Positions 26,354 to 27,823 of a stretch of 64,000 nucleotides of DNA are shown in pieces. A program made the translations under genes and the position numbers. A model generated the notes under the pieces. It searched no databases, was not told where the DNA came from, and saw only the letters and a list, made by a program, of their open reading frames with translations. Source of the stretch: an uncultured Verrucomicrobiae bacterium (GTDB lineage Bacteria; Chlamydiota; Chlamydiia; Chlamydiales; Rhabdochlamydiaceae). The stretch spans positions 96,001-160,000 of the forward strand of contig CAWFUG010000011.1 of NCBI GenBank assembly GCA_963818965.1, written 5' to 3'. Positions within the stretch are counted from its first letter, which is position 1. Each line of letters starts with the position of its first letter.

Positions 26354-27823
26354 AGTCCTGAGAGAGCACGCATCTAAAATAACGAGACACTCGACGTGCA
26401 TCGTCTGGGGGAACATGTCGAAAGGCTGCACGGTCGTAACGCGGTACCCCGCTTGGCTTAAAAATTGCAAGTCGCGCGCCAAGGTCGCTGGGTCGCAGGA
26501 GATGTAGGCGATCCGGTGGGGCTTAAGCACCACGAGCGCCTCGAGGAAAGGGCGCTCACATCCTTTTCTGGGGGGATTGATGAGGGCGAGATCGATCTGA
26601 TTCAGCTCTGCGATCTTTTCTTCTGCGAGACCACAGATGAAATGAGTGTTTTCGATCCCATTGCGCTGTGCATTCTCTTTTGCATCGACGATCGCTTCGG
26701 GGACAGATTCGATGCCGATGACCTCTTTCGCCTTTTGTGCAAAGAAGAGAGAGAGCGTTCCCACGCCGCAATAGGCATCTAAGACCCTTTCTCGACCCGT
26801 CAACTCACTGAGCTCCAGCGCCTTTTTGTAAAGCGCCTCCGCTTGAGGCGGGTTGACCTGAAAAAAGGAAGCGGGAGAGACTTTAAAATAGAGACCACCT
26901 AGAGTCTCTTCGATCCAGCCCTGTCCGATGAGCGTGCGAAATTCCCGTCCTAAGATCACATTTGTCTCGAGTGGGTTGATGTTCTGCACCACCCCTTTAA
27001 TCTCAGGACTTGTGTGGAAGATCTCTTCTGCGAGCTGAGTGATGCTATACTGCGCCCGGTCAGGAATTGCGAATTTGAGCGCGTCAAAGCCCCGGGATTC
27101 CACGATCGAAAAGGGGGCCTGTATTTCCTCAATACTGGCCCCCTTTTCGATCGTGGAATCGCGGGAGCTGATCAAAGGCTCAAATTCGCAATTCCTGACC
27201 GGGCGCAGTATGGACTCATTTGAAGTGACGAGGATGACGAGGATCTCATTTTTATGGACGGCTGTTTTGATCAAAACATGCTTAATCCCTAATTCTGAAT
27301 GCTTCTCTAGAATGCGCTGTATGGAGCTGAGCGCCTTTTCTCCTAGAGGACAGTGGATGGCACAATTTTCGATCTCGATGAGATCGTGGGTGTTGCGCGC
27401 GTAGAGCCCTAAACGGTTCTCTTTACTGACGGGTAACTGGATCTTATTGCGATAAGACAAGGTTTGAGGCGAAGCGATACAGGGCAGCACCTCCGCATCG
27501 ATCTTCGCGATGCGCTGCAACGCATCGACGACGCGCATGCGTTTGGCCTCTAACTGCTTGGAATAACTCAGATGCATCAGCTGACACCCGCCACACCGTC
27601 CGAAGAGCGGACAAGGGGGCTCGGTACGATCGGGAGAGCGATTTAAGAACTCCACCACACGAGCGCGTGCAAAGCTCTTTCTGCGCTCATAGATTGCAGC
27701 GCGCACCCTTTCACCGGGTAGGGCCCCTTCGACAAAGAGGGTGTAGCCATCGACCTTACCGACCCCCTCTCCATGGATGCCTAGGCGTTCGACCAGGACT
27801 TCTATTTCTTTACTCTCTTCCAT
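26336..27823 (-). CDS. rlmD: 23S rRNA m5U1939 methyltransferase with a 55-aa in-frame MITE-derived insertion
   Basis: TRAM domain, CGGCQ, SFFQVN, DAYCGVG, YISCDPATLARD, DMFPQTMHVE. Confidence 0.93.
   Translation of the reverse strand: MEESKEIEVLVERLGIHGEGVGKVDGYTLFVEGALPGERVRAAIYERRKSFARARVVEFLNRSPDRTEPPCPLFGRCGGCQLMHLSYSKQLEAKRMRVVDALQRIAKIDAEVLPCIASPQTLSYRNKIQLPVSKENRLGLYARNTHDLIEIENCAIHCPLGEKALSSIQRILEKHSELGIKHVLIKTAVHKNEILVILVTSNESILRPVRNCEFEPLISSRDSTIEKGASIEEIQAPFSIVESRGFDALKFAIPDRAQYSITQLAEEIFHTSPEIKGVVQNINPLETNVILGREFRTLIGQGWIEETLGGLYFKVSPASFFQVNPPQAEALYKKALELSELTGRERVLDAYCGVGTLSLFFAQKAKEVIGIESVPEAIVDAKENAQRNGIENTHFICGLAEEKIAELNQIDLALINPPRKGCERPFLEALVVLKPHRIAYISCDPATLARDLQFLSQAGYRVTTVQPFDMFPQTMHVECLVILDACSLRTSNLQS
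27046..27212. mobile_element. MITE family A, full copy inside rlmD
   Basis: Near-identical to 21942-22108; one TA repeat changed to TG; net 165 bp. Confidence 0.92.

Follow-up and report, generated by a model that had tools for sequence, protein, structure and literature searches.

The rlmD gene described here very probably carries a recently inserted, non-autonomous, MITE-like nested palindrome that is read through in frame and has been kept by a filter of selection. In the window (the whole 64,000-nt stretch of DNA that was analyzed), the minus-strand ORF at 26336-27823 continues without a stop through ...VTSNES-ILRPVRNCEFE...AIPDRAQY-SITQLAEE. The first-pass annotation had placed a 167-bp element at 27046..27212, adding 55 aa between VTSNES and SITQLAEE, and the ORF translates in just this way. 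The whole element measures 167 nt and the net gain in rlmD is 165 nt, or 55 codons. A frame check confirmed that three of the six frames are open across this copy. The right-end TA is TG on the plus strand, giving TCC for TCT (Ser) on the coding strand, i.e., the single synonymous change in a flanking TA that had been reported; most other full copies keep TATA at this end (family alignment). Coordinates of the element, its host genes, and its relatives in the window are collected in Table 1.

Table 1. Palindromic elements and host genes located in the window.
Feature	Position	Strand	Remarks
Full-length palindromic element in rlmD	27046..27212	.	TA + 163-nt palindrome + TG; repeat search, family alignment
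Left terminal inverted repeat, including flanking TA	27046..27079	.	Inverted-repeat search
Right terminal inverted repeat	27178..27211	.	Inverted-repeat search
Inner core hairpin	27091..27165	.	Holds order-wide conserved boxes; encodes RDSTIEKGASIEEIQAPFSIVESR; inverted relative to aroA copy
rlmD, RlmD/RumA-type 23S rRNA (uracil-C5) methyltransferase, 495 aa	26336..27823	-	Insert = residues 205-259; TRAM + tRNA_U5-meth_tr
Sister copy, full length, read in frame within aroA	21942..22108	.	Repeat match at 21935-22107, 91% identical to rlmD copy, 5104 nt away
aroA (EPSP synthase), 487 aa, host of sister copy	21269..22732	+	TIGR01356, 418.8 bits vs cut-off 287.25, 2 stretches
Short ~98-nt derivative, intergenic	24596..24693	.	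Both arms, core hairpin absent; repeat search, sequence
Truncated half copy	12343..12400	.	Left arm + core start; repeat search, sequence

The element is built as TA, an arm of ~34 nt, a spacer, a 75-nt core hairpin, a second spacer, the other arm, and TA. A repeat search returned terminal inverted repeats of 34-41 nt (27040-27080 / 27178-27218, 93%; arms overall 93-100% complementary) and a 35-nt inner inverted repeat (27091-27125 / 27131-27165, 94%), and together these give a near-perfect hairpin of ~80 bp. As RNA, the rlmD copy folded at -136.2 kcal/mol, whereas shuffled sequences averaged -54.9 (z -17) and none of 200 was as stable; the DNA fold was -90.3 (z -21.8). No Rfam family matched the element at gathering score, the only sub-threshold matches being to miRNA hairpin models. 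The host flanks, ...AATGAGTC / TAGCATC..., would adjoin in an element-free allele. Sequencing runs were also searched: five DNA runs, and no RNA run, were listed, with only 5-6% of the sampled words in each. Contigs from four of these were short; a smaller share were 95-99% alike and the majority <95%. Only two short pieces with poor matches reached the element, none spanned its junctions, and no joints were seen.

The sister copy in aroA bears out the earlier description of a near-identical second copy, and also the statement that both full-length copies in the window sit in frame in conserved enzymes ~5 kb apart; RlmD and AroA both score above curated cut-offs. The same annotation had the rlmD copy read from the opposite strand. 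This holds for the arms and fails for the central 75 nt, which are inverted: the rlmD-copy core at 27091-27165 is 99% complementary to 21987-22061 of the aroA copy, i.e., the core flips relative to the arms between the two. Because of this inversion, the core has the same reading sense in both genes, and AroA and RlmD have in common the 24-aa core peptide given in Table 1.

RlmD itself is readily recognized on either side of the insert, with a TIGR00479 score of 425.3 bits in two stretches (cut-off, 183.55) and a match to PDB 5xj1 at 3.8e-82. All of 11 orthologues from related genomes, the nearest 67% identical, lack the 55-aa insert; tblastn alignments run unbroken through the site, and the alignment of orthologues places it in a variable loop. 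At 67% identity synonymous sites are saturated, and in the insert dN/dS would also be confounded by the constraint of the palindrome. Judged from these comparisons, the insertion in rlmD is lineage-specific. All 12 sequences compared have C71/C77/C80/C154, N416-P417-P418-R419, C443, and E478; from RumA, we take these to be the Fe-S cysteines, the NPPR of the SAM site, and the catalytic Cys (C443) and Glu (E478). It is somewhat more likely than not that RlmD activity is retained with the insert in place.

The AlphaFold model of RlmD had a mean pLDDT of 82.8, falling below 50 in the insert (206-256). Low pLDDT is expected where an alignment has no sequence. Foldseek matched the model to 5zq0_A (TMt 0.92) and 2bh2_A (0.89). 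When the insertion site was mapped onto the model, as had been proposed, the insert appeared in the central domain as a low-confidence loop linking strand 193-200 to helix 261-269, which suggests a surface loop. No Pfam family covers the insert, which has 9 acidic and 7 basic residues and, on this model, is probably a disordered loop.

In the 2.24-Mb genome, a draft of 12 contigs that is 87.85% complete, blastn detected 73 family loci, 24 of them of at least 130 nt, and most copies are intergenic. One other copy matches that in rlmD at 99.4% identity, and two more do so at 97.6%. The 32-nt arm occurs 46 times genome-wide (<=5 mismatches) and is preceded by TA in nearly all occurrences, and nearly all copies are TA-flanked at both ends. 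Nine of the 24 long copies are located mid-gene, each with an open frame across the element. Disruptive coding insertions, on whose frequency the first-pass annotation had made its reading depend, are not a majority; in-silico excision found no copy interrupting a long ORF with a stop. The sulP host gene does, however, have a frameshift downstream of its element copy. Openness depends on phase: most copies are open on both strands when the T of the flanking TA falls at codon position 3, and the frame is always closed when it falls at codon position 1. The neutral chance of nine out of nine mid-gene copies being open is 0.006 to 0.067, by copy type, and alone is only moderately significant. A bias in codon phase beyond this open-frame filter was considered and set aside, as the 8/9 copies at the 3|1 boundary (P = 0.0036 against a TA-phase null) are not clearly significant given an open frame.

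The same full peptide is encoded by seven of the nine mid-gene copies and the same core (RDSTIEKGASIEEIQAPFSIVESR-like) by eight. Pfam or NCBIfam families were recognized in six of the nine hosts: the RlmD, AroA, SulP, and WbuC hosts are above curated cut-offs, the MenC-like host passes through its Pfam C-terminal domain only, and the LRR-protein host matches repeat models. A word-based search for the peptide among longer proteins, weak for a 55-aa query, found only seven, five of them from this genome; Pfam matched no family in the two proteins from outside it.

The same genome holds a second TA-flanked MITE family, of ~171 nt, with 0-1 open frames. None of its 24 copies is mid-gene, compared with 9/24 in the palindrome family (Fisher P = 0.0016). 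That an open-frame family is found mid-gene and a stop-rich family never is supports the idea that open frames and length allow in-frame persistence. The earlier suggestion, in which divisibility by 3 and few stops allow the element to stay in loops of housekeeping proteins, is supported by a gain of 165 nt, uniformly open mid-gene copies, an empty control, and a variable loop at the site in RlmD. Since the genome carries its own control, the selection-filter model is testable.

According to the explanation we prefer, the element would have inserted at a TA in rlmD, with duplication of the TA suggested by the flanks. The net gain of 165 nt fits 163 + 2, and empty sites are seen at the protein level; alternatively, the TA may belong to the element itself. 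Mobilization would have occurred in trans. With a frame lacking stops and a gain of 165 nt, the gene would be read straight through and presumably translated, and the protein would be 55 residues longer by a loop, slightly acidic and probably disordered, that links a strand to a helix in the central domain. Insertions with a stop or at an intolerant position would be purged, while those in an open frame and a tolerant loop would survive.

No partner for mobilization was detected in this genome at 87.85% completeness: it had no match to PF13358 (IS630-type, DDE_3) or to PF01797 (Y1/HUH), and no autonomous element with the same ends. Among five high-copy relatives, PF13358 was absent from four and present as a 47-aa fragment in one. 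Two candidates were rejected. A distant arm pair 2.4 kb apart on contig C4 proved to reflect a mirror duplication of contig sequence, with no transposase present, and the ends of a multicopy 1202-nt DDE_Tnp_1 IS are unrelated to the element.

A competing reading, which we consider rather unlikely, is that rlmD is on its way to knock-down or knock-out, its frame open only through recency. RNase III cleavage, ribosome stalling, or blocked substrate binding would then have effectively cost the cell its RlmD, tolerably so if the modification is dispensable; rlmD is dispensable in E. coli. The copy is 99-100% identical to others, and after so recent an insertion an intact ORF is a poor guide to whether function has been kept; since the mRNA would contain a hairpin of ~80 bp (-136 kcal/mol) and RNase III is encoded in the genome, expression may be cut. 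The acidic balance of the insert favors this reading, as do a RumA-family paralogue at C10:54854-56224 of this genome and a same-genus genome (G001, 89% complete) with paralogue-level matches only. So does the contact of the central domain with rRNA in RumA, as stated in the cited part of PMC5614603. However, the presence mid-gene of the open-frame family and never of the stop-rich one argues that hosts need translatability, aroA and menC-like enzymes of metabolic pathways are among those hosts, and the catalytic and cluster residues of RlmD are all intact.

Exaptation of the 55-aa module, with the conserved core peptide conferring a shared property such as binding or a localization tag, is very improbable. 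In eight of the nine mid-gene copies the core does have one and the same reading sense, yielding similar core peptides, and in aroA this sense is reached via an inverted core, but the sense bias is weak (~P 0.04, two-sided). The core boxes are, moreover, as conserved in intergenic copies and other genomes as in genes, and the stem between them is variable with compensatory DNA changes, which points to a constraint on nucleic acid rather than on peptide; the predicted disorder of the insert and its lack of a Pfam family also weigh against exaptation. We give very little credence to removal of the segment after transcription or translation, as in an intron or intein, to leave a normal mature enzyme. 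Nothing direct speaks for it beyond the highly structured RNA of the element, while intein or intron features and an Rfam family at gathering score are absent and the same element is intergenic in most copies. Equally remote is the view that misassembly produced the insert, or that it is an old expansion ancestral to this RlmD lineage. The 12-contig draft and the sulP frameshift, possibly a sequencing error, would be compatible with an artefact, but the 24 long copies have different flanks, the segment is missing from every orthologue compared, and related elements occur in other genomes.

Of 400 genomes sampled from the phylum, 64 contain such related elements; these all belong to one order, and the most first-look candidates are in G242 (135), G127 (114), and G277 (89). 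Some are also in frame: one interrupts a BacA/UppP Pfam match without breaking the frame (L045), and another lies inside an 845-aa ORF (L042). The exact 23-nt core motif was found in 43 stretches among 185,579 species genomes, and the related elements are in records labelled chlamydial. Across genomes the arms co-vary, staying complementary. With TA-TAC...GTA-TA ends, fast-evolving complementary arms, and two conserved asymmetric inner boxes in common, these elements raise an even chance that the rlmD insert is part of an old, order-wide superfamily in environmental chlamydiae, moved by an enzyme neither IS630-like nor Y1, that has repeatedly seeded disordered loops of ~55 aa in enzymes and membrane proteins. 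If so, RPE-style colonization of proteins would be an independent, recurrent outcome of intracellular life and not a peculiarity of Rickettsia. A literature search returned no account in print of elements like these from chlamydiae, and the cited passages of PMC11602168 do not mention chlamydiae.

In-frame "protein-coding palindromes" are commonly regarded as a hallmark of Rickettsia, and Ogata et al. reportedly described the Rickettsia palindromic elements (RPEs) in 2000 and 2002. As far as the cited excerpts go, RPEs are ~105-150 nt long and lie in frame in unrelated metabolic genes, with a conserved peptide and no known transposase (PMC10969869, PMC3184786, PMC1458961). The chlamydial element, on that partial account, resembles them as a short palindromic repeat of an obligate-intracellular-type lineage, in frame in many unrelated ORFs with a conserved peptide, with no known transposase and with a host fold apparently compatible with the insert. 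It differs in phylum and in its clear TA flanks, MITE-like arms of ~34 nt, ~80-bp hairpin, and core that flips against the arms. An exact-motif scan of the 185,579 species genomes found the 23-nt core motif in no Rickettsia-labelled record, and the two sequences appear unrelated as far as this motif goes. The same RPE-like behavior is now seen in a second, unrelated intracellular lineage, in a different and widespread sequence family.

Bacterial MITEs such as Coxiella QMITE1/2 (PMC5896051; more generally, PMC10969869) are described in the cited extracts as having TIRs, TA ends, lengths of 100-400 bp, and occasional in-frame fusions. Our element, with its terminal inverted repeats, is likewise small, multicopy, and without a transposase ORF, and on those extracts shares the TA termini, the size range, the stable stem-loops, and the in-frame fusions of the TA-ended group; unlike that group, it has no same-ended autonomous partner that we found, and its mid-gene in-frame copies (9/24) are far commoner. 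Its TA flanks, which may reflect TA target duplication, are like those of IS630/Tc1-mariner-derived MITEs; against such a tie, no DDE_3 transposase is present in this genome or in 4/5 high-copy relatives. The host RlmD shares with RlmCD of S. pneumoniae (5xj1/5zq0; TMt 0.92) and RumA/RlmD of E. coli (1uwv/2bh2; TMt 0.87-0.89) the TRAM, central, and methyltransferase domains; the catalytic Cys/Glu and the RumA-type Fe-S cysteines are conserved. It departs from both in the 55-aa strand-helix insert, at ~residue 220 of RlmCD, which no solved relative has. The family offers natural loop-insertion variants of RlmD, AroA, MenC-like, SulP, WbuC, and UppP proteins.

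The RlmD protein matched the NCBIfam model TIGR00479 (RlmD) well above threshold (425.3 bits; cut-off 183.55), with the match broken into two stretches by the insert, and Pfam placed a TRAM domain at residues 5-57 and tRNA_U5-meth_tr at 311-484. Its best solved relatives were S. pneumoniae RlmCD (5xj1, 3.8e-82) and E. coli RumA (1uwv, 2.3e-57); in the HMMER alignment the insert fell at about residue 220 of RlmCD, where the RlmCD chain is gapless. When 30 relatives were searched by tblastn, RlmD residues ~5-203 and ~260-484 were matched in pairs that were contiguous in the target (6 nt apart in the related genome G014). 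In G001, a genome of the same genus (89% complete), matches were at paralogue level only. Extraction and alignment of the orthologous ORFs (loci L014-L024) showed that the 55 residues were absent from all 11; in these proteins the strand LVILVT is separated from the helix LAEEI... by 2-3 variable residues. Judged by these sequences, the RlmD insert is lineage-specific. Residues C71, C77, C80, C154, N416-P417-P418-R419, C443, and E478 were invariant in the 12-sequence RlmD alignment; by RumA, we take C71/C77/C80/C154 to be the Fe-S ligands, N416-P417-P418-R419 the SAM-site motif, C443 the nucleophile, and E478 the base. An AlphaFold2 model from the same alignment (mean pLDDT 82.8, pTM 0.79) was matched by Foldseek to the RNA-bound structures of RlmCD (5zq0_A, TMt 0.92, rmsd 1.7) and RumA (2bh2_A, TMt 0.89). 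Residues 206-256, between a strand (193-200) and a helix (261-269), had pLDDT <50, which is partly expected because no alignment sequence covers the insert; the insert itself carries 9 acidic and 7 basic residues. The excerpted text of PMC5614603 gives the domain limits as TRAM 1-63, central 128-261, and catalytic 281-454, and states that in RumA the central domain helps hold the rRNA. By these limits, the insert in the model lies within the central domain, in a loop between a strand and a helix.

Features of the element, its hosts and other repeats (window coordinates unless a contig is named)
Feature	Position	Strand	Description
rlmD host ORF	26336-27823	minus	495 aa, no stop; reads ...LVILVTSNES-ILRPVRNCEFEPLISSRDSTIEKGASIEEIQAPFSIVESRGFDALKFAIPDRAQY-SITQLAEE...
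Palindromic element copy	27046-27212		TA + 163-nt nested palindrome + TG (sequence)
Terminal arms	27040-27080 / 27178-27218		41 nt, 93% complementary (repeat search)
Inner hairpin	27091-27125 / 27131-27165		35 nt, 94% (repeat search)
Sister (direct) copy, hosted by aroA	21935-22107		91% identity, 5104 nt apart from rlmD copy (repeat search)
Second TA-flanked palindromic MITE family	24428-24600; also 52636-52678, 53584-53759, 54358-54397		~171 nt
IS of 1202 nt, three copies	C1:260607-261808, C2, C9 (L051-L053)		99.8-99.9% identical; DDE_Tnp_1 frame 379 aa (340 aa at C9 copy)
Mid-gene host RlmD			203 / 235 residues before / after insert
Mid-gene host AroA			224 / 207 before / after
Mid-gene host LRR protein (830 aa)			225 / 548 before / after
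Mid-gene host MenC-like			45 / 261 before / after
Mid-gene host SulP			244 / 95 before / after
Mid-gene host WbuC-cupin protein (428 aa)			317 / 54 before / after
Mid-gene host hypothetical ORF, 332 aa			140 / 135 before / after
Mid-gene host hypothetical ORF, 228 aa			62 / 109 before / after
Mid-gene host hypothetical ORF, 274 aa			78 / 139 before / after
Related copy elsewhere, L045			in BacA/UppP protein; Pfam match split in two
Related copy elsewhere, L042			spanned by 845-aa ORF
Related copy elsewhere, L029			spanned by 338-aa ORF

The first-pass annotation had described a near-identical element lying in frame in rlmD, with a synonymous change in one TA repeat and three of six frames open, and its factual statements on this copy were all borne out, save the wording that it is read from the opposite strand. 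The minus-strand ORF is indeed uninterrupted, and the right flank is TG (+ strand) in place of the TA (TATA at the right end in most of the other copies among the 24 aligned), so that the coding strand has TCC versus TCT, Ser either way. The opposite-strand description is correct for the arms and fails for the core. Arms and spacers of the rlmD and aroA copies are direct repeats, and the arms are read from opposite strands, in different phases, by aroA (+) and rlmD (-) (YRARSGIANLSASKP... versus ILRPVRNCEFEPLISS...). The central 75 nt, however, are 99% reverse-complementary between the copies; therefore the core has the same sense in both genes, and the core peptide RDSTIEKGASIEEIQAPFSIVESR is common to both inserts. 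The core or central loop is flipped relative to the arms in several copies of the family (C11_117942, C1_200862, and C9_179165), a pattern suggesting that the inner hairpin flips repeatedly via recombination within the palindrome. The minus strand of the rlmD copy had an RNA folding energy of -136.2 kcal/mol, compared with -54.9 ± 4.7 for shuffled sequences (z -17.2, 0/200 as good), and as DNA it folded at -90.3 kcal/mol (z -21.8).

The window is C11:96001-160000 of an assembly (2.24 Mb, 12 contigs, 47% GC, 87.85% complete) in which blastn with the two window copies as queries matched 73 loci, including 24 that are 130 nt or longer. The subfamily of the RlmD copy is young, since its identity to C9:220503-220668 is 99.4% and to two other copies 97.6%. 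Alignment of the 24 copies showed ends of TA-TAC...GTA-TA and alternative spacer modules. Nine were mid-gene, all open through the element, and for six of the nine hosts a family in Pfam or NCBIfam was matched. RlmD, AroA, SulP, and WbuC exceeded the curated cut-off, MenC did so only via the C-terminal domain in Pfam, and the LRR protein was matched by repeat models. Among the remaining copies, one, located at the N-terminus of a Wzy_C-like ORF, is ambiguous; another substitutes for the final 19 codons of an ORF of 707 aa; several adjoin or overlap 5' ends; and the rest are intergenic. AroA matched TIGR01356 in two stretches (418.8 bits; cut-off 287.25), and the two tblastn halves of aroA were contiguous in the related genome G021, which is therefore without the insert. 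AroA (window 21269-22732) is 32-42% identical to relatives' AroA and RlmD 50-67% to its orthologues; on these identities, aroA may be divergent or transferred. The sulP gene (C9:99614-101472, L097) is split, its element-bearing ORF covering Sulfate_transp profile positions 1-236 and the rest (273-378 + STAS) lying in a different frame that starts ~100-290 nt downstream of the element. Either a genuine frameshift or an error in sequencing could account for this split; the element itself is not its cause.

The first-pass annotation had proposed that a length divisible by 3 and scarce stops let the element colonise loops of housekeeping proteins, and our results support this. No mid-gene disruptive copy was found among the 24, and in-silico excision at stop-bearing copies restored no long ORF; coding insertions were thus not mostly disruptive. 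How open the element is depends on the codon position taken by the T of its flanking TA: position 3 leaves both strands free of stops in most copies, position 2 leaves the sense strand open with 0-1 stops on the other, and position 1 gives 2-9 stops in every copy. Position 3 was used by eight of the nine mid-gene copies, and RlmD's peptide was given by seven. TA dinucleotides in 897 long ORFs are distributed over codon positions 1, 2, and 3 as 0.26, 0.343, and 0.397, and against this null at least eight of nine at position 3 has P = 0.0036; the chance under neutral insertion that all nine would be open is 0.006 to 0.067. The strongest support came from the second MITE family, with 24 near-full copies genome-wide (identity up to 100%) and 0-1 of six frames open. 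None of its 24 copies was mid-gene (best spanning frame 61 / 57 codons) versus 9/24 for the element (Fisher P = 0.0016; P = 0.022 when restricted to the six family-supported hosts).

The second family begins TATACCCC, as do variant copies of the first, and this common terminal octamer hints that one mobilising enzyme might serve both. No such enzyme was found in the source genome by PF13358 (IS630-type; 0 matches), PF01797 (0 matches), IS ends, or distant arm pairs; PF13358 matched a 47-aa fragment in one of five high-copy relatives. The DDE_Tnp_1 IS was rejected as mobiliser, its ends (CTTTGTACAGGAC...) being unrelated to the element, and a distant arm pair on contig C4, considered as an autonomous partner, belongs to a mirror duplication. 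The latter is a mirror-image gene block (C4:9000-14000, L035; centre at about locus position 2440) with the same ORFs on both strands, including an HTH-type ORF (104/121 aa) and ORFs of 84, 91, and 75 aa; it could be a genuine palindrome or could have arisen in the assembly of this 22-kb contig. The window also holds a short REP-like palindromic repeat (ACCACAGAGAGG...; 6044-6155 and 11700-11784, blastn matches at ~114 genome loci), a tandem array of 66-nt units at 4042-4371 (four overlapping 132-nt copies, 74-81% identical), and adjacent minus-strand ORFs of 467 and 481 aa, probably tandem paralogues by the 70% DNA identity of 29531-29830 and 31087-31386.

Beyond this genome, blastn (E ≤ 1e-5, two candidates scored per genome) matched the element in 64 of 400 genomes sampled from the phylum (55/334 high-quality), all in the same order as the host, mostly over element positions 28-124 at 71-80% identity. 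Alignments across genomes revealed full elements of ~165 nt, again bounded by TA-TAC...GTA-TA, and arms wholly different between lineages yet still complementary. There were two conserved boxes, the left one being the search pattern and hence invariant by construction, and the right one, CGATCGTNGAATCGCGGGAGCT, lying outside the pattern and at least 90% conserved. RNAalifold predicted 67 pairs, 37 with compensatory double changes, which shows that the symmetry of the element is maintained and fits hairpin function, symmetric protein recognition, or palindrome self-correction alike. An exact scan of 185,579 species genomes for the 23-nt left box returned 43 stretches, mostly in MAG records labelled Chlamydiae, Chlamydiota, Parachlamydiaceae, Parachlamydiales, or Waddliaceae, with several labelled Verrucomicrobiae, one Acidobacteriota, one only 'bacterium', and none Rickettsia. 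A long ORF spans three of ten related copies inspected in other genomes. A search of 5.8 billion proteins found seven longer ones that hold the insert peptide; five of these belong to this genome, and the other two (P0006, P0008) do not.

Taken together, the rlmD feature is a real, recent, in-frame insertion of a MITE (a non-autonomous, transposase-less mobile element) resembling the Rickettsia palindromic elements (RPEs). Our literature search found no account of elements of this kind in chlamydiae, supplements aside, and 'chlamyd' is absent from the main text of the NAR 2024 MITE survey (PMC11602168). The genome offers a useful internal control, and the family is widely distributed. According to the excerpted text of PMC10969869, RPEs are ~150 bp long and form ten families; R. 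conorii has 44 copies, of which nearly half, from three families, are fused in frame with ORFs; the excerpt of PMC1458961 counts 526 RPEs in R. bellii, 53 within protein genes. Coxiella MITEs are TA-ended with occasional in-frame insertions (PMC5896051, in excerpt), and other repeats fused into ORFs are catalogued in the excerpted PMC3184786. The chlamydial element is thus a known kind, an RPE-like in-frame MITE, here in a new phylum.
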